A stretch of 36,257 nt of DNA from Patescibacteria group bacterium (GCA_038062295.1 JBBTXL010000045.1:1-36257), one strand, 5' to 3'; positions 7,966-23,679 are shown, counted from the first letter of the stretch. Notes: generated by a model not told the origin, from the sequence alone. Program-made: numbers and translations.

Positions 7966-7977
7966 AAATTAGATAGT

Positions 7978-9021: not shown

Positions 9022-9027
9022 ACTGTA

Positions 9028-9831: not shown

Positions 9832-10325
9832 TAAAACTGTTTTTTATTATCCTGGGTGCTGCGCTGGTGCAAATGACCATTGTGGCGGCATCTTCCTGGC
9901 ATGGCGCCGCGCCTAACATTCTCCCGGCAGTGCTTGCGGTCGCCGCATTTGAAACGGGCGCGTATCATCTGTTGTTACCCGGGGTTCTTGCGGCCGGCAT
10001 CGCGCTCGACTCCTTGTCCGTTCTTCCATTTGGGGCGTTGATGTTCGCGCTGGTAACAACCGTCGGCGCGCTTGCCATCGCCGCCACCTTTTTGCCGCAC
10101 CGCGCATTGTGGCATTGCATGATATTTTCCGCTGTTGCGGCCGCCGTATACGACGGCGCAACGGCCATATTTGCATACAGCTTTGCATTTGTTGCGGGCA
10201 ACGATGCGGCGCCCGGCATCGATATCGGGTTGTTCCGTGTCGCTCGGGATATCCTTGTTGTGTTTCTTTCCGTTGCGATCTTGTATCCGTTTCGCGCATT
10301 TCTCGCAAAGCCGGCGTTACCCTAG
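9828..10325 (+). CDS. mreD: Rod-shape protein MreD-like polytopic membrane protein
   Basis: ATGA overlap with mreC; 165 aa, almost entirely hydrophobic helices. The call rests mainly on position. Confidence 0.65.
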   Translation: MIKLFFIILGAALVQMTIVAASSWHGAAPNILPAVLAVAAFETGAYHLLLPGVLAAGIALDSLSVLPFGALMFALVTTVGALAIAATFLPHRALWHCMIFSAVAAAVYDGATAIFAYSFAFVAGNDAAPGIDIGLFRVARDILVVFLSVAILYPFRAFLAKPALP

Positions 10326-10328
10326 CGT

Positions 10329-12248
10329 ATGGATTATATCGTCAAAAAATCGGAGAAGTGGTCCATCGACCCGGAGGAGATCCTGCTTGACCGCGCGTCC
10401 GCCGAAAAACTGGATGATTCAAAGTTTGAAGTTCCCATCCCGGCACACAACATAGTTGCGCTGTGCGTGCTCGCATGCACGGTGCTTACGGTATTTGTTG
10501 CGCGCGCCGGATACCTGGAAATAGAGCGCGGCGCGGCATACAGCGCGCTTGCCCAGAACAACAAAACGCGGCATTACCCGGTGCTTGCCACGCGGGGGAT
10601 CATGTACGACCGGAACGGAACGCCTCTGGTGTCCAACATTCCGAGTTTTGATGTTATCGTGGTGCCCGCAGACCTCCCGCGCGCCCGGGAAACGCGCCGC
10701 AGCGAGTCGGACGCGCTTGCCCGCATGCTTTCGGTGCAGCCCGAACTGTTATGGGAACAATTCACCCGTTTGGACCTCTCCGACGTGCAGCCGTTCGTTC
10801 TCAAAGAGAATGTTGACCGGGACGCCGCGCTTCGTTTGGAGACGGCGCTGGATGAGTTTCCCGGTATTGAACTTGAAAAGAACGCCGTCCGCAGCTACGC
10901 CGACGGGCCGTATTTTTCGCAGGTGGTCGGGTATGTCGGGCGGGCGTCCGAAAGCGATCTTGCGCGCAATGCCGCACTGTTTGGCGTTGATTCCGTCGGA
11001 AAGATCGGCGTGGAGGGTTCGTACGACGGCATGCTCCGGGGCGTGAACGGTATCATTGAACGTGAGATCGATGCGGTTGCGCGGCTCCGCAAGGAAGAGC
11101 AGGTGAGTCTGGAGGAAACGGGCGCAAGCGTTGTGTTGACCATTGACGGCGAGCTTCAAAAAAAACTGACCGATACGCTTGCGGCTGCCGTTGCGGCAAC
11201 GCCATCGTCCAAGGGTGGGGCTGCCGTCGCGCTTGATCCGCGCGACGGCGCGGTGCTCGCGCTCGTGAGTGTTCCTTCATACGACAATAATATTTTTTCG
11301 CACACTGCGTCACTGGAAGAATACCAATCGCTGGAGCAGGACTCGGCACATCCGCTGTTTGACCGTGCCATCGCGGGCCAGTATCCTCCGGGTTCTTCCA
11401 TCAAGCCGTTTCTCGCGGCTTCAGCGCTTACGGAAGGGATCATTACCGAACGAACAACCGTGGTGAGTACCGGCGCCATTACCATTCAGAGTCCGTATAG
11501 TCCGGAGGTGGTCTATACCTACCGCGACTGGAAAGCGGGCGGCCATGGCGTGGTGAATATTATCCGTGCCATTGCCGATTCGGTCAACACATTCTTTTAT
11601 TCCATTGGAGGCGGGTATGGCGACGTACAAGGACTTGGTGTTCAAAAGATCAAGGAATATCTTTCACTCTTTGGATTCGGGAGCGCAACCGGTATTGATA
11701 TTCCGGGCGAAGGTGAAGGAACGGTACCCGACCCCGCATGGAAAGAACAGGAGCTTGGCGAGCGCTGGTTGCTGGGGGATACGTATAACATATCCATCGG
11801 GCAGGGGAACCTTTTGGTGACGCCGCTCCAGCTTGCTGCGGCGTATGGTGCGCTTGCCAACGGTGGCGCGCTGCTCCAGCCGTTTGTGGTTGAAAGTGTT
11901 CTGGATAAAAATAAAAATGTTATTGCCAAAAACGAGCGGACCGTCATGCGGGAACAGGTTGTCCCGCAGGAGTATTTGAATATTGCCCGGCGCGGTATGC
12001 GTGAGACGGTGCTGTCAGGCACCGCGCAGTCCTTGCAAAGTTTGCCGGTTACGACCGCAGGCAAGACCGGCACGGCACAGGCACCGGGCGGTTTCACGCA
12101 TGCGTGGTTCAGCTCCTTTGCCCCGTACCAGGACCCCGAGATCGTACTTATCGTTCTCGTGGAAAACGGCGGCGAAGGTTCACAAGTCGCCGTCCCCGTT
12201 GCCAAAGAAGTCTACGAATGGTATTTTTCCCGTGACCGGAACCAGTAA
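10329..12248 (+). CDS. mrdA: Penicillin-binding protein 2 (elongasome transpeptidase)
   Basis: SxxK 'SSIKPF', SxN 'DSVN', KTG 'GKTGTA'. N-terminal TM anchor. Located after mreBCD. Confidence 0.9.
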   Translation: MDYIVKKSEKWSIDPEEILLDRASAEKLDDSKFEVPIPAHNIVALCVLACTVLTVFVARAGYLEIERGAAYSALAQNNKTRHYPVLATRGIMYDRNGTPLVSNIPSFDVIVVPADLPRARETRRSESDALARMLSVQPELLWEQFTRLDLSDVQPFVLKENVDRDAALRLETALDEFPGIELEKNAVRSYADGPYFSQVVGYVGRASESDLARNAALFGVDSVGKIGVEGSYDGMLRGVNGIIEREIDAVARLRKEEQVSLEETGASVVLTIDGELQKKLTDTLAAAVAATPSSKGGAAVALDPRDGAVLALVSVPSYDNNIFSHTASLEEYQSLEQDSAHPLFDRAIAGQYPPGSSIKPFLAASALTEGIITERTTVVSTGAITIQSPYSPEVVYTYRDWKAGGHGVVNIIRAIADSVNTFFYSIGGGYGDVQGLGVQKIKEYLSLFGFGSATGIDIPGEGEGTVPDPAWKEQELGERWLLGDTYNISIGQGNLLVTPLQLAAAYGALANGGALLQPFVVESVLDKNKNVIAKNERTVMREQVVPQEYLNIARRGMRETVLSGTAQSLQSLPVTTAGKTGTAQAPGGFTHAWFSSFAPYQDPEIVLIVLVENGGEGSQVAVPVAKEVYEWYFSRDRNQ

Positions 12249-12251
12249 AAC

Positions 12252-12280
12252 TTGATTTTTCTGTAACATTATGGTATACT
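12252..12280 (+). promoter_or_regulatory. Sigma70-type promoter with extended -10, driving a leaderless mRNA
   Basis: TTGATT (12252-12257), 17-nt spacer, TGg-TATACT (12272-12280). ATG at 12288 is only 7 nt past the -10. Confidence 0.7.
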
Positions 12281-12287
12281 GTTCCTT

Positions 12288-13043
12288 ATGATTACGCACA
12301 AAGACCTGGAACGGTTCGGGTTGTCGGAAAAAGAAGCGCGGGTGTATCTCGCATCGCTGGAATTGGGGCCGGCAACGGCTGCGCAGATCGCGCAGAAAGC
12401 GGGCGTGAACCGCGCGACCACGTATGTGGAAATAGAATCGCTCATGAAGATGGGGCTTGTCAGCACCCATGAAAAGAACAAAAAGACATTGTTTACGGCC
12501 GAGGACCCGGAAGCGTTGAAGCGCATTCTCCAGCGGCGTCAGGAACGGTTCCAGCGTGCGCATCAGGCACTCAATGAACTGTTGCCAGAACTTTCCAATC
12601 TCTATCACTATGCCGGAGAAAAACCAAAAGTGCGATTTTTTGAAGGAAAAGAGGGATTGCTTACCATGCAGGAAGATTTTTTGAAAACGAAAGACAAAAT
12701 GATAGAGGGTCTCTACAATGTTGATAACTATCATAAAGTGTTTTCACGAACCGAACGCGAACAGTATTATGCAGTACGGTTAAAGAAAAAAATTCACGGG
12801 AGAACGCTCTACAACCGTGAAGCAGGTCCTTTTGACAGTCCGGACAAAATTACCGAAGACCGTTTTGTGTCCACAGATAAATTCAATTTTTCAAGCGATA
12901 TTACTATTTATGACAGTAAAGTTGCGATTGCCTCGCTCCGGGGAAAATTGATGGGGGTCATTATTGAGAATGAAGAAATTGCAAACACGGTGCGAGCTCT
13001 CTTTAGGTTGGCGTGGGATGCCGCAGAAAAATATCAGAAATAG
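12288..13043 (+). CDS. TrmB-family winged-helix transcriptional regulator (251 aa), paralog 1
   Basis: N-terminus 'LERFGLSEKEARVYLASLELGPATAAQIAQKAGVNRATTYVEIESLMKMGLV' is a TrmB-type HTH. Alignable over its length with the ORF at 22676-23431. Confidence 0.8.
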   Translation: MITHKDLERFGLSEKEARVYLASLELGPATAAQIAQKAGVNRATTYVEIESLMKMGLVSTHEKNKKTLFTAEDPEALKRILQRRQERFQRAHQALNELLPELSNLYHYAGEKPKVRFFEGKEGLLTMQEDFLKTKDKMIEGLYNVDNYHKVFSRTEREQYYAVRLKKKIHGRTLYNREAGPFDSPDKITEDRFVSTDKFNFSSDITIYDSKVAIASLRGKLMGVIIENEEIANTVRALFRLAWDAAEKYQK

Positions 13044-13057
13044 GTGCGGGAAAAGTG

Positions 13058-13090
13058 AAAACCGGGGATCGTTTTTCGATCCCCGGTTTT
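13058..13090. terminator. Bidirectional intrinsic terminator
   Basis: Perfect 14-bp stem aaaaccggggatcg / cgatccccggtttt with a ttttt loop. A/T runs on both sides. Confidence 0.85.
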
Positions 13091-13477
13091 GTTCATCCAT
13101 GCGAGTTGGTAGATATTAGCACGGACGAGTCTTATGGTCTTCCGGCGCCCATCTCGCCCTCCTTTTGGTTGGGGGAGGGAGTATAGATGGGCGAAAACGT
13201 TTTCTCACGTTGATTCGCTTCACTTTCGACGCCACAGAAACCAGTGGAATTTGGTAAAGTTTCCCGCTTTTTCCGCGTATTCACAAGTTGCTGGCCTCGC
13301 GCCAGCGTGAACATCTCGTTTTGCCGGCATTCTCCTAAAAATGCTTTGCCAGCAGTTTCGGTTTGGTTGAACTGCCTTTCAGTCGTAAAAACCAACGTTT
13401 TCACCCCCTTTCTTCCCCCCATATTCCCCTTAAACCCAATGTTTAAGGGGTTTTGGTAATGTACGAACAGCTTACCA
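13091..13477 (-). ncRNA. Candidate leftward transcript (structured RNA, or mRNA for a 96-aa ORF at 13132..13422)
   Basis: Lies between the minus-strand consensus promoter (13484-13511) and bidirectional terminator 13058-13090. Many hairpins, e.g. ccccttaaac/ggtttaagggg, gctggc/gccagc and cgcccatct...agatgggcg. The ORF product is low-complexity and basic. Confidence 0.25.
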
Positions 13478-13483
13478 TCGTCC

Positions 13484-13511
13484 ATTATACTCAAATACAG
13501 TTTTTTGTCAA
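13484..13511 (-). promoter_or_regulatory. Consensus sigma70 promoter firing leftward
   Basis: Minus strand reads TTGACA (rc of 13506-13511), 16-nt spacer, TATAAT (rc of 13484-13489). Confidence 0.7.
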
Positions 13512-13644
13512 TAGGCAATAACAATTTCTAAATATTTTTCTTTAAGTCAACTGTTGTCATAAATTATCAACACTATATATTATCAATAAAATAGCTTAAA
13601 TACTGTATTATTTAGCAATTATTGTTATTACTTGTTTAAAACTA

Positions 13645-13672
13645 TTGACAAAATAATAAAAATGAGTATAAT
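13645..13672 (+). promoter_or_regulatory. Consensus sigma70 promoter firing rightward into the 13.8-19.1 kb gene string
   Basis: TTGACA (13645-13650), 16-nt spacer, TATAAT (13667-13672), inside a visibly AT-rich tract. Confidence 0.75.
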
Positions 13673-13789
13673 GCCCGAGGTAAGTGACAAAAGCACCTTG
13701 AAACCAAAGGAAATTCAACGAAACCAAAACCCCTAACCATTTCCTCTGTCGCGTAAAGCTATGGAGGATACAAGAAAGGAGGTGATTGG

Positions 13790-14098
13790 ATGAGCGACAC
13801 CCGGCAGGAGCTTTACTCCTGCAGTGTCACCGGCTGCGGCACCACAGGCCCTGCGGACCGTATGTACTCTCTTGATAAGAGAGCTACAAGCGGAAAGCGG
13901 GTAGTGGTATGCCCCCCGTGCGGCAAGCTGGCCTGGAAAGAGGGAATTCGGACATACAAACTGTCTGACACCCTCCGGTACGAGGAACAGCAAGCCATGA
14001 AGCGCGGTTTCTTCCAGCCGTTCACGCGGTCTCTCGCGAAAGCGGAGGCCCGAAAGGACGGCAACGGCAAGAAACCCAAGCTTCACGCGGTTGGCTAG
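13790..14098 (+). CDS. Small zinc-ribbon protein (102 aa), uncharacterised
   Basis: Perfect SD AAAGGAGGTGA (13775-13785), 4 nt before the ATG. 'CSVTGC...(25)...CPPCG' four-Cys ribbon and a basic C-terminus. Confidence 0.7.
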   Translation: MSDTRQELYSCSVTGCGTTGPADRMYSLDKRATSGKRVVVCPPCGKLAWKEGIRTYKLSDTLRYEEQQAMKRGFFQPFTRSLAKAEARKDGNGKKPKLHAVG

Positions 14099-14201
14099 CG
14101 CAGACCGGACGCGTCAATCTCCGGCCAAGGCACCGGAGTTGCCCAAAAACCCTTGGGTGTCAAAGCATGGGTGCGATAGGGTTCTGCAAAATTTCGCAGG
14201 A

Positions 14202-14278
14202 CTCCCTTCCAGAGCTTGTCTTTACGACAGCGTCCCAGAGACGAAAAGCCACACACTTAGGCTGTCTCTGGAAGGGAG
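14202..14278 (+). repeat. SD-mimic stem-loop, copy A
   Basis: ctcccttccagag (14202-14214) is perfectly complementary over 13 bp to ctctggaagggag (14266-14278). Confidence 0.8.
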
Positions 14279-14326
14279 ATTGGCTCCCGCACAGTTCTTT
14301 CAAACCCGAGAGGAGGTGGTTACCGA

Positions 14327-14416
14327 ATGGTAAAACAGATCGTTGTCGCGGCTCCAAAGTGCCAGGCCGCCGGGTGGCATAAAAACTGCCCGTTCTGTCA
14401 GGCTCGCAAGAGCTGA
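14327..14416 (+). CDS. 29-aa Cys/His mini-protein MVKQIVVAAPKCQAAGWHKNCPFCQARKS (below the ORF-track cutoff)
   Basis: SD GAGGAGGTGG (14310-14319), 7 nt before ATG 14327. C12..H18..C21-x2-C24 knuckle. Stop TGA 14414-14416. Confidence 0.45.
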   Translation: MVKQIVVAAPKCQAAGWHKNCPFCQARKS

Positions 14417-14493
14417 CGCTGGCCATGAGGGGACGCACATGTGCGCCAAGGAGTTCCCCTCACTCAATAGAGCCAAGCAAAAAAATCGTTTGG

Positions 14494-14537
14494 CTCCCTT
14501 TCAGAGGCTTGAAACGATTCAAATTTCTGAAAGGGAG
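14494..14537 (+). repeat. SD-mimic stem-loop, copy B
   Basis: ctccctttcaga (14494-14505) is perfectly complementary over 12 bp to tctgaaagggag (14526-14537). Inner hairpin ttgaa-acga-ttcaa. Confidence 0.8.
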
Positions 14538-14633
14538 AAATCCCGAAGTTCTTTGAAACAACAGCAGCGCAGGGCTGCGAACGGGACGACGCCGTGTTTC
14601 GGTCGAGCCATCAACCTTCAAAGGAGGTGAATC

Positions 14634-15149
14634 ATGAGACAAGTCGGCTTCGTTACCTACAATTCCGTAGGGGACGGAGTGGCTGACGGCTGGCATAAAG
14701 CCGAAGATCGGCAAGCGTACGTGCTGCAAAACAGCAAAGGTGAACGCTTCGCAGTCGATGGAGTCAACGGAGGGGAGTTTGAAACCCTCTTTGAACTCTT
14801 CGAAGGCAAGTTTAACCGCGCTGATGGCAAGTACGCAGACGGCGTGAGTGACGAGATCAACGCCATCTGGAGGAAACTCCAGGCGGTTGTGAATGATCTT
14901 GATCACCTCGTGGTCTACGTCGGTTCGGCCGGGTCAGAGCGCGCCATTGAGCTCGCGAGGCAACTGCCTGCGTCCAAAGTCACCTTTGTCGGCTGTGATT
15001 GCGGGCTTCCCTTCAAGGAAGCTCTCATCCAGAAGGCTGGGTTGACCAAGGCGGGGCGGGTGCTGTGTGAGTGCGGTGGACGCCGGACCATGAAAGCGAT
15101 CTTTGATCGCTTCATGAAAACCGGTGCGCTTCTGCCTGCCAATGCCTAA
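14634..15149 (+). CDS. Hypothetical protein (171 aa) with paired C-x-C-G motifs
   Basis: Perfect SD AAAGGAGGTGA (14620-14630). The C-terminal half looks alpha/beta ('LVVYVGSAGSERAIELARQL') and carries 'GCDCG' and 'LCECGG'. Confidence 0.75.
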   Translation: MRQVGFVTYNSVGDGVADGWHKAEDRQAYVLQNSKGERFAVDGVNGGEFETLFELFEGKFNRADGKYADGVSDEINAIWRKLQAVVNDLDHLVVYVGSAGSERAIELARQLPASKVTFVGCDCGLPFKEALIQKAGLTKAGRVLCECGGRRTMKAIFDRFMKTGALLPANA

Positions 15150-15336
15150 GCTGCTCTTCCATCCTCATACTGCCATGTAAAATTGCTCCTGCGACATGGC
15201 GCAGGCGATGAGACTGTCGCGATGACAGGCTCCTCGTGAGCGGGGATCCGCGATAAAAAGAGAGAAAGATGGATTACTCTCCATAAATCCGGGCGAGACC
15301 GCAGGTGTTATTTGTGGGAAGGAAACAAAACCCTTC

Positions 15337-15370
15337 CCGCCTTTCTTGAGACGCGAAAGAGATTTGGCGG
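15337..15370 (+). repeat. SD-mimic stem-loop, copy C (degenerate)
   Basis: ccgcc/ggcgg outer stem with ctttc (15341-15345) / gaaag (15355-15359) inner stem. Followed by the agttcttttcaaac motif at 15385. Confidence 0.5.
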
Positions 15371-15704
15371 TTCAAGTTGAGGAAAGTTCTTTTCAAACAT
15401 TCAGATTCTGGAAGCGGCCCGCTCCAGAGACGGAACACCTTATCTGCTTAGGATGTTCTTAACCTTGGAAAGTATAGCCAAGGTTAGCCCGTGATGAGGG
15501 TGTCAAGCAGAAGGGTACAAGATGCCGGCATGCATCTTGTGGCGAGGAGCCAAGGGGAGCTGAACACAGGTGCACCTGTGTCCCTAACGAGATAGGGCAA
15601 CTTCTTCCTCTCGCGGCCGCACCGTAGGGAGGTTTATAGAGGTCGGATCCCCTCTAAGAAGGCCTGTCTCATTGCTAAATGGGACTACGAGAAAAAACTC
15701 GTAG

Positions 15705-15750
15705 TCCCGCTTTCAGAGATCTTGAGGAAACTCGAGATTTGCGAAGGGGA
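15705..15750 (+). repeat. SD-mimic stem-loop, copy D
   Basis: tcccgctttc...gcgaagggga imperfect outer stem. Inner hairpin atcttgag-gaaa-ctcgagat (15719-15738). Shares 'ctttcagag..cttg' with copies A, B and F. Confidence 0.6.
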
Positions 15751-15878
15751 ATTAGCGTAGGGCTGATTCCAAAGTTCTTTTAAATCAAACCGTAAAGGAG
15801 GTGGGGCACACTCCACCAAAAAAGGCGCACGCGGCTACGACCGCACTCGCCACAAAGAACATATGAGGAGGCACAACG

Positions 15879-15911
15879 ATGCATAAACTTACCTCCTCTC
15901 CCTTTCAGTAA
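15879..15911 (+). CDS. Micro-ORF MHKLTSSPFQ (10 aa), putative leader peptide
   Basis: SD GAGGAGG (15865-15871), 7 nt before the ATG. Its last codons form the left arm of stem-loop E. Confidence 0.3.
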   Translation: MHKLTSSPFQ

Positions 15912-15947
15912 CCATTTGAGACAAAGAGAGAGTGGTTACCGAAAGGG
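15900..15947 (+). repeat. SD-mimic stem-loop, copy E
   Basis: ccctttcagtaacca (15900-15914) versus tggttaccgaaaggg (15933-15947): 14 of 15 paired. Confidence 0.7.
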
Positions 15948-15992
15948 AAAAAAGACAGTACATTTAAAAACCAAATAACAGGAGGATGAACC

Positions 15993-16412
15993 GTGGTAAA
16001 AAAGATCGTGGTTGTGGAAGATAACCCCGTCGAGCTACAAAAGGCGTGCGATTTGGTTGCGGCGCGCGGCATGATGCCGCTTCCGTGCGCAACCCACAAG
16101 GATGCGATTGAAAGCATTCTCAGCTATCAACCGAAAGGATTGGTTGGTATTCTTACCGATTTGCACTTCCCGATCGCGGAAGGCAAAAACCCGGAAGGCG
16201 CGTGCGGTTTGCATGTGGTGCACCTTGCGCTCACGATGGGTATGCCGGTCGCTATTTGTTCCGATATCGACCATCACTACGCCACATGGGCAAACGATCT
16301 TGTGCGCGATGTTGAAAAGGCAACCGGCAGAAAAGTTGCCGGATTTATTCAAGACAGCAAAAATTGGGAGAAAGCGCTTGCGCTACTCCTCGACGAAAAG
16401 GAGGAACGGTGA
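15993..16412 (+). CDS. Stand-alone CheY-like receiver (REC) domain protein (139 aa)
   Basis: GTG start 6 nt after AGGAGGA. 'KIVVVEDNP' (acidic pair), 'ILTDLHFP' (phospho-acceptor Asp), 'VAICSD' (conserved Ser/Thr). Confidence 0.8.
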   Translation: MVKKIVVVEDNPVELQKACDLVAARGMMPLPCATHKDAIESILSYQPKGLVGILTDLHFPIAEGKNPEGACGLHVVHLALTMGMPVAICSDIDHHYATWANDLVRDVEKATGRKVAGFIQDSKNWEKALALLLDEKEER

Positions 16413-16768
16413 CGACGGAAAAGAAAAACTACAACGTTTTGTTTGTATCCGAAATGGCGCCGGTCAATGCCGCCATGGACAGGATACTCAACCAACTTTT
16501 CTCTATTGGTGAAGTATGTGGTTTGGAAGACGCCGAAGATAAGATCTTTGCCGGCAACTACACGCACATCATTGTGATGGGAGAGTTCAGGTCGAACACC
16601 CCCAGCAAGGGTAGAGATTTTTATCAGCTTTTGAAACTACGGCTTCCGATCTGGAGAAAGGACGCCAAGGTTCTCAAAAGTGGCATGGATAACATCCAAG
16701 ACGACCCGGACTATGTCTGCATCCTGAATTTTCTTCCCGGGTTCATTCAGTGGGTCGAGTCGCACTAA
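16409..16768 (+). CDS. Receiver-like (degenerate) domain protein (about 119 aa)
   Basis: GTGA overlap with the REC gene stop; AAGGAGGA upstream. A beta-alpha pattern ('NVLFVSE', 'HIIVMGEF') without the acidic pocket. The start could instead be the ATG at 'SEMAP'. Confidence 0.55.
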   Translation: MTTEKKNYNVLFVSEMAPVNAAMDRILNQLFSIGEVCGLEDAEDKIFAGNYTHIIVMGEFRSNTPSKGRDFYQLLKLRLPIWRKDAKVLKSGMDNIQDDPDYVCILNFLPGFIQWVESH

Positions 16769-16769
16769 T

Positions 16770-16813
16770 AACAGTTCGACAAGCTCACCGAAACAGTTCG
16801 ATACACTCACTGT
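16770..16813 (+). repeat. Tandem 22-bp direct repeat (2 units)
   Basis: aacagttcgacaagctcaccga / aacagttcgatacactcactgt: 17 of 22 identical. The first 10 nt and the 'ctcac' block are conserved. Confidence 0.75.
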
Positions 16814-16830
16814 AAAAAGGAGGTGATGGG

Positions 16831-16869
16831 GTGAAGTTCTTCTATCCCGTTGGATTTGTTCAGGAGTAG
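16831..16869 (+). CDS. Micro-ORF MKFFYPVGFVQE (12 aa)
   Basis: GTG start 7 nt after the GGAGG core of perfect SD AAAGGAGGTGA (16816-16826). Peptide-level paralog of the micro-ORF at 23647-23679. Confidence 0.4.
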   Translation: MKFFYPVGFVQE

Positions 16870-17288
16870 GGAGCCTCTGTCATGAAGGGGAACACGGGGT
16901 CCGGCGGTGCTCAACCGTCGGGAAATCGGGACCAGAGAGATTGACCAGGACGGAGTCCTGGTGTGATCACTGGAAAAACCCGTTGTTTCTTTCCAGATTC
17001 CGTCATGCTGCCTGGGGGGTGTCCCTATATGCGGGACGAAGCCCGTACCAGCTTTTGCGCTCTCCCTTGAGAAAGGAGAGGTCGGCAACGGTGGCCCGTG
17101 TGTTCCAAACTTCGGTTTGGACGACGGCGGCAGTATGGCGCGAGGTGCAGACGTATCGGAGGAACCTCGTGAGAAGAATCTGGCGCGGCCGGTGAAGTGC
17201 AACGCACTGCGGAGCTTGGGGGCGGAACAACCCGCGGTGAGCCGGTAAGGAAACTACCCTTCATGCATGCTCGGTTTTATCAACCACT
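16870..17288 (+). ncRNA. Candidate ~0.4-kb structured RNA / leader
   Basis: 9-bp long-range helix catgaaggg (16881-16889) / cccttcatg (17257-17265). Local stems at 16944-16962, 17060-17080 and 17105-17120 (the last with a UUCG loop). ORFs listed here look like composition artefacts. Confidence 0.35.
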
Positions 17289-17309
17289 ATGAACGAAAGG
17301 AGGCACACA

Positions 17310-17606
17310 ATGTCGTGCGAAGAAATGGAGCCGGAATGGCAGGAAATTGAGCAAGAAGTTGAAAAGGTGGTTGAAGCGCTTCCGGAGCTGCCACCCAAAG
17401 AAGTTATCATGGAGGAAATTCATATGGAGACCCACAAGCTCGTTGACCTCCAGAAAGTCATTTTCGGGAAACCGAATCTGAAGCGCGCAGAAACTGCGGC
17501 GCTTATGAAAAGTGCGGCGAGAAACATCCTTGCCAATATCAAGGCGGGCGCCGCCAAACATCTTCCTGTGCATGTGACAGGCAACTCCCGCCAACGGGCG
17601 GGATAA
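17310..17606 (+). CDS. Hypothetical acidic protein (98 aa)
   Basis: ATG 17310 lies 6 nt after AAAGGAGG. The listed 17289 start has no SD. Confidence 0.65.
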   Translation: MSCEEMEPEWQEIEQEVEKVVEALPELPPKEVIMEEIHMETHKLVDLQKVIFGKPNLKRAETAALMKSAARNILANIKAGAAKHLPVHVTGNSRQRAG

Positions 17607-17630
17607 AGGGGTAAGGAGTAACATATCTTT

Positions 17631-17699
17631 ATCCCTCTTTCAGAGCTTGCCAGAACTATATTTTTGTGGTATACTGTTCTGACAAGTTGCGAAAGGGAT
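17631..17699 (+). repeat. SD-mimic stem-loop, copy F (carries a promoter in its loop)
   Basis: atccctctttc...gcgaaagggat outer stem. Inner stem cttgccagaac (17646-17656) / gttctgacaag (17676-17686) with one mismatch. Confidence 0.6.
17647..17675 (+). promoter_or_regulatory. Sigma70-type promoter with extended -10
   Basis: TTGCCA, 17-nt spacer, TGg-TATACT. Shares the 13-mer tggtatactgttc with the promoter at 12272-12285. Confidence 0.6.
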
Positions 17700-17728
17700 C
17701 TTTGAAAAACAAATAAAGCGGAGGGGAG

Positions 17729-17962
17729 ATGAAAACACAGGAAGAGATACAAAGCGACCTCGTTGCGATACTGGAAAGCCATGGCGACGTGAAAGGTTAT
17801 ATTGCAAGTCTTATCGACCCGTTGCCATACACGACGCCCGAGGAGAAAGCAAGTAAAAATAGGAAAGCCGCGGCAGCGATTATGGCGTACGGTTCGTTTG
17901 AACGCGGTCTCTTTAATGTTGATATGCTTGCTGAAATATTACATAGAACTATCAACCCCTAA
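17729..17962 (+). CDS. Hypothetical protein (77 aa)
   Basis: ATG preceded by GCGGAGGGGAG. Stop TAA overlaps the SD of the next gene. Confidence 0.6.
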   Translation: MKTQEEIQSDLVAILESHGDVKGYIASLIDPLPYTTPEEKASKNRKAAAAIMAYGSFERGLFNVDMLAEILHRTINP

Positions 17963-17975
17963 AGGAGGTGAGAAC

Positions 17976-19055
17976 ATGGAGATGAGTTTGTCGTTGCGGC
18001 AAAGCCCGATGCTGGAATTGCGGCAGGCGCTGGAGAGTTCGCTTGAGCAGTCACTTATGGTACGGCATGAACTCCAGATGGCCATGGTGTTGTATCAGAA
18101 GCGGGAAGATGTATGCACCCGTCTTTACAAAAACGCTCTCAAAAAGGGTATGGTGAAACAGTACGCTCGGCACGACATGCAGTTTGAATTCGCGCTGGTG
18201 CGGAAGAAAGACGTCCCGGAGTGGATCTGGAAAGACTGCGGCCACGCGTTTTCCCATTGTCTCATGAAAGGATGGGACTGCTTCTTTTTCGGAAGCAAGT
18301 ATGCTATGGCGCGTGGGAGCTGGTTACTCTTTGTCATCCATGATTTTCACCGCGAACCGATGCCGGACAGCGCTGTCGGGTATGCAGCGGTACATGAGCG
18401 TGGAGAGATGGTTACGTTGGGAGATCACAACCTGGCATCCAAGCTCGAATTTTCGATCGCTGCGAAGGAGAGCAAGCTTAAGTGGTACATCGAATGGATC
18501 AAACAGACATGTCCGGAGAAATTTGCCGACATATTCAGCTACCAGACCCACTTCGTGCTGCCCGAGGGCGAGGAACTGCGTCAGACGCTCGAGGTATTCC
18601 AAGCATCTAAAGAAGCTCGGAAAGTAAAACAGCTGATCGAAGAATTTGAGTGGCCGTTGACGCTGTTGAAACTCCTCAAACAGTACGATGACGCAAACCG
18701 GCAGGCGCTTGGAATCATTCTGGATATGTTCTTGATGGCCGGCGATGTGGCGATAAAGGCCAATGTTTCCGTCATTCAGACGGTTGAACATATCAAGGCG
18801 GTTTTCCAGCGCGGGTTTTCCGAAATGACTTCCCAAGATCTCAAAAGGTACTTGAGCATTGTTCGGTTGGAAGGACGATGGAAAGATCAGCGCAATGAGC
18901 TGGGGAATAAGTTTTCCGAGATGTTGACCAGGAGAGAGAAACTCTTGGGCATTGACCGCTATCTTCGCGAACTTGATGCCGCGAGGGTAACAAATTCTCT
19001 TCCCACAGACGGCATTCTCTCTCCGGACTTTCGGGAAGTCCTCCGATATATATGA
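17976..19055 (+). CDS. Hypothetical protein (359 aa)
   Basis: ATG 17976 lies 5 nt after AAAGGAGGTGA (17961-17971); the listed 17802 start overlaps the previous gene. Contains 'CGHAFSHCLMKGWDC'. No family recognised. Confidence 0.75.
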   Translation: MEMSLSLRQSPMLELRQALESSLEQSLMVRHELQMAMVLYQKREDVCTRLYKNALKKGMVKQYARHDMQFEFALVRKKDVPEWIWKDCGHAFSHCLMKGWDCFFFGSKYAMARGSWLLFVIHDFHREPMPDSAVGYAAVHERGEMVTLGDHNLASKLEFSIAAKESKLKWYIEWIKQTCPEKFADIFSYQTHFVLPEGEELRQTLEVFQASKEARKVKQLIEEFEWPLTLLKLLKQYDDANRQALGIILDMFLMAGDVAIKANVSVIQTVEHIKAVFQRGFSEMTSQDLKRYLSIVRLEGRWKDQRNELGNKFSEMLTRREKLLGIDRYLRELDAARVTNSLPTDGILSPDFREVLRYI

Positions 19056-19060
19056 ACATG

Positions 19061-19108
19061 GCCCGCCAAGGTTTTCAAAACAACGAGAACCGCGGCGGGC
19101 TTTCTTTT
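19061..19108 (+). terminator. Intrinsic terminator after the gene string
   Basis: gcccgcc (19061-19067) / ggcgggc (19094-19100) plus ggtt/aacc, followed by tttctttt. Confidence 0.7.
19065..19108 (+). repeat. Direct repeat, left copy (flanks the ABC gene)
   Basis: gccaaggttttcaaaacaacgagaaccgcggcgggctttctttt. 41 of 45 aligned columns are identical to 20937-20981; the last 22 nt are identical. Confidence 0.85.
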
Positions 19109-19138
19109 CGTACCGCACCATACTAAACTTATGAAGTT

Positions 19139-20881
19139 ATGTATTCAACCCGAAACCTGATATCTGATACCTGGTTTTATTTGAGAGCTTATAAAAAGAG
19201 GTTTTTGCTGGCGACACTCCTGCGAGTGGTCGCCGATCTGTCGTGGCTCTATCCGCCCTATGCGTTTGCGGTGATCGTGAACTTTTTTGCCGATTACACC
19301 GCCGGAGAATCCTTGATGCCCATATACACTGCGTTTGTACTTACCATCGTTGCGGTTACGGTCCGGTACTGGGGATTACAGCTTGTAAAGATGATGGCGT
19401 ACCAGATCTCCGAACGGGTTGCCCTGGACGCAGAACTCCGGGCAATGAGGCACTTGGTACTCCTTGACATGTCTTGGCATGAAAAAGAGAACGCCGGGAA
19501 CAAATTCAAGCGCATCGAGCGAGGAGCCGAGAGCTTAGATGTGGTTCTCCGGATCTGGATAGACAATATCATTGAGATCGTCGTCAACCTCGTGGGGGTA
19601 GTATTCATTATTCTCCACTTTGACCTTGGGATGGGCATCGCAGTTTCTCTATTTCTGGTCACGTTCTATGTTTTAGCCCGCTTCTATCGCAAGAAGGCAG
19701 TAGCTGCGGCGGGTGTGGTGAATATAAAAACAGAGCATCGGAGCGGGATACTTTTTGAATCCATAAACAACATTCGGAGCGTTAAGGTAATGTCCATGGC
19801 GCCCAAGATTTTGGAAACGCTCTCGGCAAATGCGGCGGATCTGTTCAGCGCGATCAGAAAACGAATTTACTGGTTCCAAATCGGGGGTACCATCAGAAAC
19901 TTTTACGCAAATGCTTTTCAGATCGGCGCGATGATCTATATTGTCTACGGGGTGGTTCATGGAAAGTATGAGATCGGCTTTCTGGTGCTCTTTGTCGGAT
20001 ACTTCGGGCATGTTTGGCAGTCGATGCGGGAACTCGCGGATATAACCGCACGTTTTGCCGTTGCCAGAATCGCCGTTTCTCGCATGCAGGACATCCTCTA
20101 TACTCCTGTCACGATCGACCGCGAAGACGGGAAGGTTGCGTTTCCCGTCGACTGGAAAACAATATCGGTAAACAATGTGTCGTTCTCGTACCAAAGCAAA
20201 CCCGTCCTGCGTAACGTATCATTTACCGTGCATCGGGGAGAAAAGGTCGGCGTTGTTGGCCTGTCGGGAGCGGGAAAGTCAACTCTGTTTAAGCTTTTGC
20301 TCAAAGAGCACGAGTCTTATAGCGGCGAGATCTATTTTGACGATGTTCCCTTGCGGGACATCAGCAAACGGGATTATTTTAACCACATGGCGGTGGTACT
20401 CCAGGATACCGAGCTCTTCAACGCGTCGCTGCGCGACAACATTACTATCACGAACCAAAAAGAGGAAAATAATAAAAAACTGCTTCGGGATTCGATCGAG
20501 ATAGCTCATGTGAAGGACTTCATGGCGAAGTTGTCGGAAGGAGCGGAATCCGTTATTGGGGAAAAGGGGATAAAGCTGTCGGGGGGAGAGAAACAGCGTG
20601 TGGGGCTCGCGCGGGCGATATTCAAAAAGCCGCAAATCCTCCTTCTGGATGAAGCGACCTCACATCTGGATATAGAGTCCGAAGAAAAAATTCAGGATTC
20701 ACTGCACCGGTTTTTCAAGAATGTGACCGCCGTCGTCATCGCTCACCGGCTCACCACCATCAAAGAAATGGACACAATCATCGTTATTGAGGATGGGAGC
20801 ATCATGGAGTCCGGAAGTTTTTCCGATCTGCAAAAGAGAAAAGGGAGATTTGCCGAGCTGTGGGAGAAGCAGAAACTCTAG
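19139..20881 (+). CDS. ABC exporter, fused permease-ATPase (MsbA / type I exporter-like)
   Basis: Six-TM N-terminal half. Walker A 'GLSGAGKST', signature 'LSGGEKQRV', Walker B 'ILLLDEATSHLD'. No peptidase domain. Confidence 0.93.
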   Translation: MYSTRNLISDTWFYLRAYKKRFLLATLLRVVADLSWLYPPYAFAVIVNFFADYTAGESLMPIYTAFVLTIVAVTVRYWGLQLVKMMAYQISERVALDAELRAMRHLVLLDMSWHEKENAGNKFKRIERGAESLDVVLRIWIDNIIEIVVNLVGVVFIILHFDLGMGIAVSLFLVTFYVLARFYRKKAVAAAGVVNIKTEHRSGILFESINNIRSVKVMSMAPKILETLSANAADLFSAIRKRIYWFQIGGTIRNFYANAFQIGAMIYIVYGVVHGKYEIGFLVLFVGYFGHVWQSMRELADITARFAVARIAVSRMQDILYTPVTIDREDGKVAFPVDWKTISVNNVSFSYQSKPVLRNVSFTVHRGEKVGVVGLSGAGKSTLFKLLLKEHESYSGEIYFDDVPLRDISKRDYFNHMAVVLQDTELFNASLRDNITITNQKEENNKKLLRDSIEIAHVKDFMAKLSEGAESVIGEKGIKLSGGEKQRVGLARAIFKKPQILLLDEATSHLDIESEEKIQDSLHRFFKNVTAVVIAHRLTTIKEMDTIIVIEDGSIMESGSFSDLQKRKGRFAELWEKQKL

Positions 20882-20936: not shown

Positions 20937-20981
20937 GCCAAGACTTTTTAAAACAACGGGAACCGCGGCGGGCTTTCTTTT
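20937..20981 (+). repeat. Direct repeat, right copy
   Basis: gccaagactttttaaaacaacgggaaccgcggcgggctttctttt. It lacks the upstream gcccgcc arm, so it folds poorly as a terminator. Confidence 0.85.
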
Positions 20982-21002: not shown

Positions 21003-22010
21003 ATGATATATAATGAAAATATGGATAAACCAGAACAATCAAATAAATATTCTGAAAAGGAGGCTTTGGAAGAAGCTTCTCAAATGAGGGAATTAGTCGG
21101 AGAAAAAGGAAGAGCCGAGGATTATGATGTGGCGGAAGAGTTGTTAGAAAAAACAAAGAGTGATGATGAGGAGGTAACTACACCTGATCTCGGTAAAGAT
21201 GACAGTCCAAGAAAAGTAGAGATGTCTCCAATAGAGAAATATGCATTTCCTGATGAAGAAAGTGTTTTTGGTCAGAAGTCGTGGAAAGAATCGTTGGAAG
21301 AAAATACTCCCGCTCCTAAGAAATGGAAAGGACTTCAGAACTTTCCTGTGCCAGCTCGCAAAGAAAAGCCAGAACAGAACGAAAAAAAATCAACAGAGAA
21401 AGATAAGATAGAGGACTCTCTGTGGACATCGGCAGAATCAGCGCAGCAAATGAGAGTTTTTCTGGAAAAAAGAATCGGCAAACTCGTGGCGGAAGTTACG
21501 GAAATGAGAAAGAACCGTTTAAATTTACACGAACAGGAGATTATGGATGAAAAAGAACAGAAACTCTTACTTTTAACCCGCCAACTGGAGCAAAAAAAAC
21601 AAGAAGAGGAAGAGATACAAAAAAAGCTGGAAAGTCTTGAAAATGGCAGCATGAGCTTCGAGGTCAAACATGAACTTACCCAAGCTCTGCAAGAGAACGA
21701 TTCTCTGTCCAAGAGGAAACAGAGAATTCAAGAAGAACGAGATAGGATTTTAGAGGAGATGAAAAGAACCGGTGAGTATAGTGAACACGAACCAGGGAAA
21801 GCGTTAAAAATAGCAACGCAGCTTGCTCGTCAAGGTGGCAAACAGGGGCCGCTTACAACAGGACGACACGCATCCCACATTAAGAACGTTGACACTTCAA
21901 GCGCAGAAGGGGAGTTTTATTTTCACTCGGCAGATACCCATGGTGGGAAAGTGGGATATGGCAAACGCCCACGAAAAGACGCAGGCGGACGAACCGTCAG
22001 AAAAAGTTAA
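21003..22010 (+). CDS. Hypothetical highly charged coiled-coil protein (335 aa)
   Basis: Long open frame in a visibly lower-GC block. E/K-rich heptad-like segments ('EQKKQEEEEIQKKLESLE'). Confidence 0.65.
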   Translation: MIYNENMDKPEQSNKYSEKEALEEASQMRELVGEKGRAEDYDVAEELLEKTKSDDEEVTTPDLGKDDSPRKVEMSPIEKYAFPDEESVFGQKSWKESLEENTPAPKKWKGLQNFPVPARKEKPEQNEKKSTEKDKIEDSLWTSAESAQQMRVFLEKRIGKLVAEVTEMRKNRLNLHEQEIMDEKEQKLLLLTRQLEQKKQEEEEIQKKLESLENGSMSFEVKHELTQALQENDSLSKRKQRIQEERDRILEEMKRTGEYSEHEPGKALKIATQLARQGGKQGPLTTGRHASHIKNVDTSSAEGEFYFHSADTHGGKVGYGKRPRKDAGGRTVRKS

Positions 22011-22037
22011 GTTTTTAATACGAAATAAGCAGATCTG

Positions 22038-22703
22038 CTAACGTTCGGTCTCTGCAAATTCTTCATGGACGCCGTTTTCGAGTACCAGGAAAACTTTTGT
22101 TGCAGTGATTGGCTGGGGGAGCCTCATTGCAACCGTGCGGCCGAGTGGATTTTGTCCATGGTTTCTACTGCTTAAATCCCAATAGTTGTTGATCGTGTAT
22201 AAGGTGTCTTTGTCATTGGTTCCTTTTTGCGCGAGAAATGTTAACAGTGCTTGCACGCCGCTTTTATATTCTTCCGACCCAACTTCCATAATGCCGTGCT
22301 CATCTTTATACACGAGCTTGTTTTTGTCCACAACGGCAATAATTCCATCTTCAAGGCGTGTAAAAGTAAATGCCGTATAAGGACTATTGGAAAGAAATAC
22401 TCCTTCCTCCGCAAGCTGGCCCTTTTGGACAGGGTATCTTTGCGTTAGCTTTATTTCTTCGTACGCCTCGCGGTTTAACCCGCGAAACAATGTATCGGCG
22501 GACACAAAATCAATGGGGTTCTTCCCGCAATCTTTTTGTTCGTTTTCCGATAAATACTTTATGAGTAATTGAATATATTCTGCATATTCATACTCCCGTT
22601 CACGGCCGATCTGTTCGCGCGCAACGGCGTATCGTATGGCATCTCTGTTTACAGCAACGTTGAGAACGCCGTCCGTTACTTCGCTGGCTCGCTCACGTTC
22701 CAT
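22038..22703 (-). CDS. Hypothetical protein (221 aa)
   Basis: Overlaps the 3' end of the upstream TrmB paralog by 28 nt (same strand). No family recognised. Confidence 0.65.
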   Translation of the reverse strand: MERERASEVTDGVLNVAVNRDAIRYAVAREQIGREREYEYAEYIQLLIKYLSENEQKDCGKNPIDFVSADTLFRGLNREAYEEIKLTQRYPVQKGQLAEEGVFLSNSPYTAFTFTRLEDGIIAVVDKNKLVYKDEHGIMEVGSEEYKSGVQALLTFLAQKGTNDKDTLYTINNYWDLSSRNHGQNPLGRTVAMRLPQPITATKVFLVLENGVHEEFAETER

Positions 22704-23431
22704 AAGGTGTGAAACAGCGATTTCAAACTCTCCGCCAAGCTTTTGGATACCACGGTAAATCCGAAATCTTCCTCTTTAGGGGAAATGACGGCCACGGTGT
22801 TGTCCAAAATAAGAATGGTGCTGGTGATTTTCATGCCAGCAGGCAGGAAGCGAAGTTCACGCAGCCGTTCTTTTTGCTGTGTGATATATTTATGTTCGAT
22901 TTCCTCTTCTCGCACTCGCAATGACTTGGAGAGAATTTTTTGTGCTACCCGCCTTCGGCTGAAGGAAAAATCGGGTCCCAAGACTTCCTTTATTTTTTGC
23001 GACGAACCAATGGAGTATAAGACTTTTTCTTTACTCTCAAGCAGTTTGTTATAGATGGTTCGGATACCCTCCTCTCCTTCATACAGATTGAGCGGAGCTT
23101 TTGTTCGGGAGATGTTCGCGTGCTGATATTTGTCCAGCTCCGGTTTGAGTTTTTCAAATGTTACTATCCTATCTTCCAGCATGCTCTTGATGTGTATCGG
23201 GTTTTCAGCAGTATACCGCTTTATCTTATTGGATATGTAAGAAGAAGCAAGACCGGATTTTACCAAGTTTTCCAAAATGTTGTAGGCGGTGGGCCGCTTC
23301 ACGCCCGCCTTTTTTGCAATGAGCGATACCGGAGCATCGGCAAGTCCAAGGAGCGCAAAATAGACGTTTTGGCTTGCCTCATCAAGACCAAGGGACGAGA
23401 AAAACTTTTCTAATTCATGGCTTGTTGTCAT
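22676..23431 (-). CDS. TrmB-family winged-helix transcriptional regulator (251 aa), paralog 2
   Basis: 'LGLDEASQNVYFALLGLADAPVSLIAKKAGVKRPTAYNILENLVKSGL'. Same length and architecture as 12288-13043. Confidence 0.8.
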   Translation of the reverse strand: MTTSHELEKFFSSLGLDEASQNVYFALLGLADAPVSLIAKKAGVKRPTAYNILENLVKSGLASSYISNKIKRYTAENPIHIKSMLEDRIVTFEKLKPELDKYQHANISRTKAPLNLYEGEEGIRTIYNKLLESKEKVLYSIGSSQKIKEVLGPDFSFSRRRVAQKILSKSLRVREEEIEHKYITQQKERLRELRFLPAGMKITSTILILDNTVAVISPKEEDFGFTVVSKSLAESLKSLFHTLWNVSEPAK

Positions 23432-23448
23432 AATGCATCAACAGAACG

Positions 23449-23457
23449 ATTATACCA
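23449..23457 (-). promoter_or_regulatory. Extended -10 promoter element (TGgTATAAT) for TrmB paralog 2
   Basis: Minus strand reads atggtataatcgttc, about 17 nt upstream of the ATG at 23431. The -35 is poor. Confidence 0.55.
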
Positions 23458-23646
23458 TTTCGTTCGTTTTTTCGCTATATTCCTACACTTTTTGCCGTAC
23501 CAATTATCTTGTTTATCGAGAGCACCTACTTTTCCAGCATTGACGCATGGAAAACGTATAATAGCGTCAGCACATTGAAACCAACCCCCAACCGCCCGCA
23601 GGCGAACCTGCTGCTGGATGAAAAACATCCACAAAGAGGAGGTACT

Positions 23647-23679
23647 GTGAAAAACAGCTACCCCACCGGGTTCTTATAA
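23647..23679 (+). CDS. Micro-ORF MKNSYPTGFL (10 aa)
   Basis: GTG start after AGAGGAGGT (23635-23643). Shares M-K-x-x-Y-P-x-G-F with the micro-ORF at 16831, using different codons. Confidence 0.4.
   Translation: MKNSYPTGFL

Follow-up and report, generated by a model that had tools for sequence, protein, structure and literature searches.

A candidate TrmB-linked accessory island with putative cis-acting RNA control in a groundwater Patescibacterium

Introduction

A string of eight co-directional genes, located at positions 13,645 to 19,108 of a contig from a Patescibacteria group bacterium (GCA_038062295.1, JBBTXL010000045.1:1-36257), is read here, tentatively, as a lineage-specific accessory island of a groundwater Patescibacterium. 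In this island, signalling or regulation linked to a TrmB-family regulator would be combined with cis-acting RNA control. We put the probability of this reading at roughly 45%. The whole stretch that was analysed, 36,257 nucleotides, is referred to as the window. The same DNA is present in Hainich groundwater assemblies (well H51, 0.1 µm fraction), and the window is part of CAYICE010000001.1 (149,770 bp, assembly GCA_964361915.1). A search of the literature on Patescibacteria with TrmB or Shine-Dalgarno returned nothing on such a locus.

The open reading frames (ORFs) of the string all lie on the plus strand, with the sizes and the common direction described in a first-pass annotation that a model had made from the DNA. 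They are A (13790-14098, 102 amino acids, aa), a' (14327-14416, 29 aa), B (14634-15149, 171 aa), C (15993-16412, 139 aa), D (16409-16768, 119 aa, overlapping C by 4 nt), E (17310-17606, 98 aa), F (17729-17962, 77 aa) and G (17976-19055, 359 aa). Proteins A to G have no significant match in Pfam, NCBIfam, PHROGs or PADLOC, and with no significant PDB or Rfam match either, their description as uncharacterised accessory genes holds. The string likewise contains, as had been stated, no kinase, replication or mobility gene. Homologues of A, B, C, D, E, F and G exist elsewhere, and a' has none; judged by homology, A to G are real genes of Patescibacteria (candidate phyla radiation, CPR), with homologues there only. 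Related loci or contigs fetched for comparison carry L-numbers (L002, L013, L034 and so on), energies are given in kcal/mol, and structure z-scores are relative to shuffled sequences.

A recurrent site beside a TrmB-family regulator

The gene just 5' of the string, TrmB1 (12288-13043, plus strand), encodes a TrmB-family regulator (Pfam PF01978, E = 4.7e-16) and is the conserved left neighbour of the island. Its orthologues, with 33-53% identity, stand just 5' of A-B, C-D or orphan strings in L002, L034-37, L038 and L040. The loci L034-37 and L040-47 present TrmB (52% identical), a non-coding gap, a consensus promoter, variable small ORFs, C, D and a third, weak receiver, and L038 presents TrmB, a gap and an A-family protein (hhalign 97.4%, E = 1.2e-11) directly 5' of B. 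A structured leader followed by E and then G is found in L006, L012 and L013, the last of which also has C-D upstream. Elsewhere, B and G share one contig (L033), G adjoins a weak receiver protein (L015), or G is alone among housekeeping genes (L003, L005, L059, L060). The TrmB orthologue of L002 lies 5' of orphans next to G; the 102-aa and 170-aa genes that follow it were considered as A and B and set aside as not homologous. Both B without C to G and C-D without A, B, E or G occur in relatives.

The first-pass annotation had proposed a self-contained module, and this part of it fails, because the whole gene order is not conserved. Gene order is conserved only within sub-blocks, in which TrmB accompanies A-B, TrmB accompanies C-D, or the RNA leader accompanies E and G. 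Such mosaic synteny ties the families by a recurring partial neighbourhood and not as an obligatory set, and as receiver-type genes recur next to these families, a signalling role of the island is plausible. The small genes between the promoter and C differ even among close relatives (109, 95 and 76 aa in L034; 134, 103, 95 and 76 aa in L037; 66, 76 and 68 aa in L040), and island content therefore appears to behave like cassettes. Nearly identical leader modules flank different small genes at L034 6540-6700 and 7020-7185 and at L040 5350-5460, each made up of a CUCCCUUUCAG hairpin, two further hairpins, a GTTCTTTACAAT box and a Shine-Dalgarno (SD) sequence.

Promoters, candidate operator and translation signals

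Transcription of the string would start from a consensus sigma-70 promoter, TTGACA-16-TATAAT, at 13645-13672 on the plus strand, which matches at 12 of 12 positions and had been correctly annotated. A second TTGACA-16-TATAAT promoter, again 12 of 12, lies on the minus strand at 13484-13511, and the two form an inverted repeat as mirror images. Under the mirror promoter stands a divergent small ORF or transcript (13132-13485, minus strand), recorded publicly as a 117-aa gene, which has no Pfam match. The minus-strand promoter and its SD GAAAGGGGGTGAAAA are kept in L034 and L040, and the 117-aa peptide is not kept.

Between the two promoters is an operator-like palindrome, TGTTGTCATAAATTATCAACA (13552-13572). 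This 21-bp palindrome recurs as TGTTGTCATAATGCATCAACA at 23423-23443, over the -10 box and start codon of TrmB2, the second TrmB gene of the window (22676-23431, minus strand, assigned by Pfam). The shared form, TGTTGTCATAA-N3-ATCAACA, has two matches in the window versus 0.02 expected, and the two sites are a candidate operator and autoregulation site. Because the palindrome of the control region is also found on the TrmB2 promoter, a TrmB-type repressor probably controls transcription.

The string closes with an intrinsic terminator on the plus strand (19060-19110), annotated before at 19061-19108, in which a hairpin at 19060-19101 (-27.3 kcal/mol, z = -5.1) is followed by UUUCUUUUC as the U-tract. 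Both ends of the string and its co-direction are thus as first described, and the single transcription unit implied by that description is probably not. A hairpin directly after E (17607-17636, plus strand, -21.7 kcal/mol, z = -4.4), followed by CUCUUUC, is a possible terminator or processing site. It is followed by a promoter-like site on the plus strand at 17647-17675, TTGCCA-17-TATACT, with 10 of 12 matches and a TG 5' of the second hexamer (TTGCCA-17-TGgTATACT). Together, the hairpin after E and the TG-bearing site before F suggest that F-G is a separate unit, and G has its own TTGACA-type promoter in nearly all other lineages examined.

The translation signals of the string are distinct from those of its surroundings. 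Each of its ORFs is preceded, at correct spacing, by a match of 5-10 nt to AAGGAGGTGA, which confirms the strong or perfect SDs noted earlier. A strong SD is present in 9/9 string ORFs, a 12-aa mini-ORF described below being counted, versus 0/24 other ORFs of the window, as scored at longest-ORF starts. In the window outside the string, GGAGG followed by a start codon and an ORF of more than 200 aa is found in three places only. The same split is seen in relatives, where island genes carry AAGGAG(G) and RecA, FtsK, Maf, TrmB, NusA, Tig, L19, RbfA and RuvA are without it. In several housekeeping genes, TrmB1 at 12288 and RRF at 4275 among them, a -10-like hexamer lies about 7 nt 5' of the ATG, a position that suggests leaderless mRNAs. 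Our reading is that SD use would accompany long leaders, and not foreign origin.

Structured non-coding RNA and the leader box

The non-coding share of 13645-19108 is 39.6%, where the first-pass annotation had spoken of roughly a third; the large share stands and the exact value is higher. The housekeeping block upstream (1081-13043) is 98% coding and about 2% non-coding, and the contrast drawn between structured non-coding sequence and tightly packed upstream genes is therefore sound. The strong structure claimed for these parts is also found. The fold of 15150-15992 has z = -14.65 in the sense direction and -9.2 in antisense, with the sense strand 29 kcal/mol more stable; z is -5.9 for 14099-14633 and -2.55 for 16800-17300, versus +0.10 for a coding control of equal length. 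Stop-codon recoding was considered as the cause of the gaps and rejected, as the largest gap has all three stop types in every plus-strand frame. One frame of this gap, broken by TGA alone, is not protein-like, and the non-coding blocks show RNA-type covariation instead of a coding signal.

One of these RNAs is a conserved structured leader of about 390 nt, 5' of E (16878-17266, plus strand), which is defined by sequence comparison and covariation. This leader, in the spacer between D and E, is 72% identical to L013 and L012, and E itself is 38% identical. Its consensus fold has 117 pairs with 93.9% of cells paired, and 19 compensatory pairs with changes on both sides versus 2-4 in slid controls. 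In 500 shuffles, the observed value was never reached on four of five measures, and on the fifth, further pair types, it was reached in 22. At the head of the leader is a 12-aa mini-ORF, MKFFYPVGFVQE (16831-16869, plus strand), with a perfect SD. Its counterpart in L013 reads MKKRFPVGFV, and PVGFV is kept through three synonymous changes. A conserved peptide with its own SD at the 5' end of the leader points to translation-coupled control. Directly after D, at 16770-16813, there is a tandem 22-nt repeat, AACAGTTCGACAAGCTCACCGA / AACAGTTCGATACACTCACTGT, each copy of which holds a variant of the leader box described below, just 5' of the mini-ORF SD.

The largest spacer is an 843-nt intercistronic hairpin array (15150-15992, plus strand), which holds element 1 (15171-15302) and a conserved hairpin (15899-15948). 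With L034, element 1 shares 80% identity; the hairpin shares 87-88% with L034 and L040, and adjacent coding DNA about 69%. In element 1, two mutually exclusive pairings are kept, with four compensatory pairs. A further hairpin on the plus strand at 14494-14537 (-25.5 kcal/mol, z = -4.6) is of the CUCCCUUUCAG...CUGAAAGGGAG type, as is the hairpin at 15899-15948. Rfam 15 gave no match at gathering score in the whole window, and an Rfam search by E-value over 13000-19300 gave chance miRNA matches only (E >= 0.13). Further copies of the conserved RNA blocks were sought with three 16-mers in IMG/VR, where in all 40 matches the similarity ended with the seed. Between one gap and another, only short repeats of SD regions and hairpins are shared.

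A short leader box, AGTTCTTTNNAA, recurs in the string. Its four window copies, versus 0.11 expected, are all in the string on the plus strand (14293-14304, 14547-14558, 15385-15396 and 15773-15784), and it stands 5' of SD sites throughout L013, L034 and L040-47. Among 21 independent G leaders the box is present in 10 in sense, and there is 1 in antisense; this bias argues against a symmetric site, and the box as a palindromic DNA operator was set aside. The box may mark a processing site, enhance translation or bind a protein. Four copies of a 20-nt ribosome-binding module, ATCAA(A/C)C..AAAGGAGGTG, stand at 14299-14318, 14610-14629, 15784-15803 and 17951-17970. No ORF follows the copy at 15784, whose SD is part of a hairpin.

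Protein families of the island

The receiver-type pair C-D gives the island its signalling aspect. The C family (37 clusters) has invariant D10, D56, S90 and K123, a nearly invariant E9 (21 sequences) and an HFP/DHH signature. The matches of its family profile in PDB are almost all response-regulator receivers, the best of them at E 0.0033. In the comparison with PDB receivers, D10/E9 fall on the DD pocket and D56 on the phospho-Asp; S90 and K123 would correspond, by their spacing, to the receiver Thr/Ser and Lys, the displayed PDB profile alignments covering the N-terminal half only. C has no match to Pfam PF00072 at E <= 0.1. As the receiver-type PDB profile matches align both the DD pocket and the phospho-Asp, C is, by its sequence, a divergent stand-alone receiver domain, and the CheY-like receiver of the first-pass annotation is upheld by the invariant residues and the PDB receiver matches. 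A diverged C paralogue, 36% identical, is found in L034 at 11602-12018, 3.6 kb downstream of C-D and directly 5' of a 65-aa ORF and FtsK.

D always follows directly after C (L013, L034-37, L040-47). Its pocket positions read VLFVSE and HIIVMGE, which leaves no acceptor Asp. The best PDB profile match of D is a response regulator at E = 0.11, and a comparison of D with C by hhalign was not significant (probability 0.3%). D possibly has a receiver-like fold without the Asp pocket. Of the degenerate receiver proposed earlier, the missing acidic pocket is thus observed, and the fold is plausible but unproven at E = 0.11.

The B family (95 clusters, across CPR) has invariant FVTYN, GWH, a VGSxGSE loop and four Cys (CxC...CxC), and the GCDCG and LCECGG motifs reported for the 171-aa protein are present. 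The AlphaFold2 model of B is alpha/beta, with a predicted local distance difference test score (pLDDT) of 89.2 and a predicted template modelling score (pTM) of 0.87. By Foldseek this model has no PDB match at E <= 0.001, the best being E = 5.6e-3 with template modelling score (TM) <= 0.49 and generic alpha/beta folds only. The sequence profile of B gave nothing significant in PDB (best E 0.59), and a weak PHROG match (E = 0.0027) is sub-threshold. In L038 there are two B paralogues, at 8491-8937 and 10001-10483, 1 kb apart; they enclose an A-family gene, and a gene for a Ser/Thr protein kinase follows just downstream.

The A family has 37 representatives at E <= 1e-3 in an exhaustive search, with invariant C11, C16, M25 and C41 and a basic tail. 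The zinc ribbon C-x4-C...C-x2-C that had been assigned to A agrees with the invariance of C11, C16 and C41; the fourth Cys, that of the C-x2-C, is not conserved. A is possibly metal- or nucleic-acid-binding, and A and B, both Cys-rich, are probably zinc-binding. Large multi-repeat matches of A (invasin, C2H2 zinc-finger proteins) were discarded as spurious low-complexity or Cys-pattern matches. The 29-aa a' has a strong SD and the pattern C-x5-H-x2-C-x2-C, so that the ORF and pattern noted before are there; it has no homologue in any fetched locus, and for this reason a' stays unverified. A repeat search found that the start region of a' repeats that of C, and a' is possibly an upstream ORF. 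E homologues lie upstream of G in L006, L012 and L013, the closest contigs only, and F has one relative, in L013, with 39% identity and there downstream of G.

G belongs to a family of 53 clusters, of which the few with a taxon name are Patescibacteria (Andersenbacteria, Portnoybacteria). Its invariant residues are H140-E141-x-x-E144...H151, and FSHC is conserved; the motif CGHAFSHC......C, noted earlier, is present with H94 and C95 conserved, and its first Cys varies. The AlphaFold2 model (pLDDT 85.3) combines a long helix at the N-terminus, an alpha/beta core of four strands and a C-terminal domain made of helices. Foldseek found nothing for it below E = 1, with a best E of 1.4 in PDB and 1.1 in BFVD, and the zincins BepA, IrrE and SprT-like are among the non-significant fold matches. 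The profile of G gave nothing relevant in PDB, a designed helical bundle only (E 0.0029), and no Pfam family at E <= 0.1 and no peptidase match were found. G is probably a metal-dependent enzyme. The Leu/Gln-rich N-terminal helix has what we take to be a resemblance to sigma-54 region I; no profile supports it, and a sigma-54-like N-terminus was discarded with no Pfam support at E <= 0.1. A 104-aa fragment in L032 (9998-10312) and L031 (1747-2058) keeps only the HERGE...H core of G at 54% identity, and looks like a truncated or pseudogenised copy.

Neighbouring genes in the window

The housekeeping block 5' of the string includes YceG, HolB, RRF, an M50 protease, a class II tRNA synthetase, MreB, MreC and PBP2. 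A perfect 14-bp hairpin with A-run and T-run flanks (13058-13090, -25.7 kcal/mol, z = -5.8) has the appearance of a bidirectional terminator that would serve both TrmB1 and the divergent transcript. Directly 3' of the string is an ABC exporter with a transmembrane domain (Pfam). The 3' part of the string terminator (19072-19108) is repeated at 20945-20981 with 95% identity, after the ABC exporter gene, which is thereby bracketed by a direct repeat; this repeat may be the footprint of an insertion or duplication.

Beyond it, about 12 kb (21003-33121) contain ORFs of 335, 221, 215, 332, 523, 250 and 1022 aa without significant Pfam match. Apart from a weak TraB/PrgY match, below threshold, on the 523-aa ORF, Pfam recognised there only the second TrmB gene and an AAA_28 protein. 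In view of these ORFs, the unannotated region is much larger than the string first reported. HrcA and GrpE follow at the far 3' end of the window. A tRNA/tmRNA search of the window found neither, and the GC content of the string is not distinct from that of its flanks.

Weighing the explanations

Several observations weigh against the reading of the string as a TrmB-linked island with cis-acting RNA control. On the side of expression, the leaderless interpretation of the housekeeping genes depends on longest-ORF start calls, and the operator idea has two sites as its basis. L034 and L040 lack a conserved counterpart to most of the 843-nt array, and as small ORFs fill the equivalent interval there, part of the array may be decayed cassette sequence. 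The covariation of the E leader is essentially one divergent comparison, L012 and L013 being nearly identical, and its structure is derived from the same sequences. On the side of the proteins, no kinase or output domain is linked to the C-D receivers, and both the receiver fold of D and the metal site of G are putative. G being solitary in most genomes, a shared function for all genes is also not required.

An alternative is a chance assemblage, in which the site after TrmB would be a permissive hot spot for unrelated orphans with no shared function, and the non-coding sequence would be mostly decayed cassettes and leaders. We consider this possible, if on the unlikely side. It would account for the gene content between promoter and C, which varies among L034, L037 and L040, for the nearly identical leader modules that flank a small gene in L034, and for G, B and C-D each being found without the others. 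The middle of 15150-15992 is not conserved and yet contains two leader boxes and orphan SDs with ORFs of only 10-21 aa, and ORFs without significant Pfam match also abound between 21 and 33 kb of the window. Against it, partial co-occurrence is seen repeatedly in independent lineages, where TrmB accompanies A-B or C-D, leader RNA accompanies E and G, and B or a receiver accompanies G. Similarity is also higher in the conserved non-coding blocks than in coding DNA, these blocks carry compensatory changes, and a z of -14.65 is far beyond neutral decay.

That the string is what remains of a phage, plasmid or other mobile element, with genes that have retained foreign translation signals, is in our view improbable. 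Strong SDs confined to the string, cassette content that differs between relatives, the direct terminator repeat around the neighbouring ABC gene and the weak PHROG match of B would all agree with it. Against this, the string has no integrase, transposase, replication gene, structural gene or tRNA, the mobility and phage gene classes having been sought with Pfam, PHROGs and PADLOC, and with tblastn in phage records, plasmid records not being searched. B and G have no tblastn match in 50,697 phage records, the model of G has no significant fold match in BFVD, the IMG/VR 16-mer matches do not extend beyond their seeds, and GC content is like that of the flanks. Across CPR, these families are found among chromosomal housekeeping genes, where each has a promoter and an SD of its own. 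The phage derivation floated in the first-pass annotation accordingly found no support, whether by tblastn, BFVD fold, significant PHROG match or hallmark gene. An integron-like array of promoterless co-directional orphan cassettes, separated by recombination hairpins, would resemble the string in its small co-directional orphans with hairpins between them, in content that varies among relatives and in the repeated modules flanking genes in L034. It is nevertheless highly improbable, as no IntI-type integrase family is found in the window or in the gene tables of related loci, and the repeats, accompanied by an SD, precede the genes instead of following them. The hairpins form short perfect stems in which the R''-L''/L'-R' layout is missing, and neither they nor the leader box fit the attC consensus RYYYAAC...GTTRRRY, the box reading GTTCTTT where the core site is GTTRRRY (all judged by eye, with no pattern search).

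Equally remote is a cluster for a ribosomally synthesised and post-translationally modified peptide (RiPP) or bacteriocin, with a' and A as precursors, processing by a metalloprotease-like G and export by the downstream ABC transporter. The Cys-rich small ORFs, the invariant HExxE...H in G and the ABC exporter with its transmembrane domain directly downstream brought it into consideration. Yet the ABC gene is unlinked to these families in every relative examined, Pfam gave no recognition element, cyclase, radical-SAM or other modifying-enzyme family, a' is without homologue, A has a basic tail and no leader/core organisation, and G is mostly solitary. The TrmB-linked island remains the reading that we prefer.

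Proposed working and significance

From the sequence features, homology, synteny and RNA covariation observed here, we infer how the island might work. It would occupy a recurrent site just 3' of a TrmB-family regulator, with the blocks A-B, C-D, leader RNA with E, and F-G conserved separately. Twin divergent consensus promoters would fire outward from one control region, where a TrmB-type repressor probably sets transcription by binding the palindrome, and F-G is probably under its own promoter too. The transcripts would have long leaders and spacers, with each cistron translated through its strong SD, in a window whose other genes are without SD and apparently have short leaders or none. The spacers may have cis-acting roles: the hairpin array might affect transcript stability, processing or attenuation, and the leader of about 390 nt with its 12-aa mini-ORF might be a translation-coupled switch for E. 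The products would form a small regulatory set. Within it, C may be phosphorylated by an unlinked phosphodonor or a small molecule, D would be its partner that cannot be phosphorylated, A and B would be Cys-rich and probably zinc-binding, and G probably a metal-dependent enzyme.

A more far-reaching proposal, which we rate as quite unlikely, is that the RNA elements belong to undescribed classes: the leader of about 390 nt gated by a 12-aa peptide, the 840-nt hairpin array, and a box GUU(C/G)UUU..ACAA common to many CPR-specific genes. Together with the SDs, such elements would set a TrmB-linked regulon of orphan receivers, zinc-type proteins and G apart, in an otherwise SD-less genome, by a leader-dependent expression regime of its own, and in this regulon G or B would be the missing partner of the receivers, as phosphatase, phosphodonor or output.

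Patescibacteria represent a large share of bacterial diversity, and gene regulation there is almost unknown. The locus offers several handles, including the arrangement of regulator plus island, a kinase-less receiver pair, and the families B and G, which are well modelled and have invariant metal-type motifs. At least two conserved structured RNAs are absent from Rfam, and the split between an SD-led island and SD-less housekeeping genes bears on translation initiation in reduced genomes. If the RNA elements and the leader box are functional, they would count among the earliest cis-regulatory RNAs to be defined in Patescibacteria; should they prove non-functional, the locus would keep its value as an example of a variable hot spot for orphan genes.

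Comparison with known systems

The archaeal regulators TrmB and TrmBL1 provide the nearest comparison for the control region. As in those systems, a PF01978 winged-helix regulator lies directly 5', and a palindrome is found in the target control region and on the promoter of a paralogue. TrmB adjacency to the island is conserved in relatives, and the palindrome is shared by two sites. In contrast to archaeal TrmB, the island has no sugar-transport or sugar-metabolism genes, and the palindrome TGTTG-N11-CAACA is, to our knowledge, not a described TrmB site.

Single-domain response regulators of the CheY, Spo0F and DivK type share with C a size of about 140 aa, the lack of an output domain, the acidic pair and the acceptor Asp, and by their spacing S90 and K123 of C are candidate counterparts of the receiver Ser and Lys. 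C differs from them in falling below the Pfam PF00072 thresholds and in its extra invariant TDLHFP, CSDIDHH and DSKNW. It is also always paired with D, which has no Asp pocket, and neither a histidine kinase nor an Hpt protein or chemotaxis gene was found linked to it. G, in turn, resembles the zincins (IrrE/ImmA, SprT and the metzincins with HExxHxxGxxH) in having a beta-sheet followed by a helix with H-E-x-x-E, and a His 11 residues after the first His. The second ligand in G is Glu, however, and not His, so that its helix departs from HExxH, and G has neither a fold match at E < 1 nor a Pfam peptidase match.

The RNA elements may be compared with leader-peptide attenuators and long cis-regulatory leaders (trp, erm, riboswitch-like 5' untranslated regions), in which, as here, a short conserved upstream ORF with an SD heads a long structured leader. 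Element 1, with its two mutually exclusive conserved pairings, shares a further trait with attenuators. Unlike the classical examples, the E leader is much longer at about 390 nt, has no Rfam match and is predicted from sequence. Hairpins of the repetitive extragenic palindromic (REP) and bacterial interspersed mosaic element (BIME) type are likewise stable and numerous between the cistrons of a co-directional string, but the hairpins here are mostly unique sequences, none recurs elsewhere in the 36-kb window, and some are conserved between genera. Integrase-less integron arrays (clusters of attC sites lacking integron-integrases, CALIN) have co-directional small orphans, intervening hairpins and strain-variable content in common with the string. 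They differ from it in that the repeated modules here are 5' leaders with an SD, and no integrase and, by eye with no pattern search, no attC architecture were found. The RNA elements and the B and G families are without described relatives, while the arrangement in which they stand is of known kinds: a regulator-adjacent accessory operon, an orphan receiver and a leader RNA.

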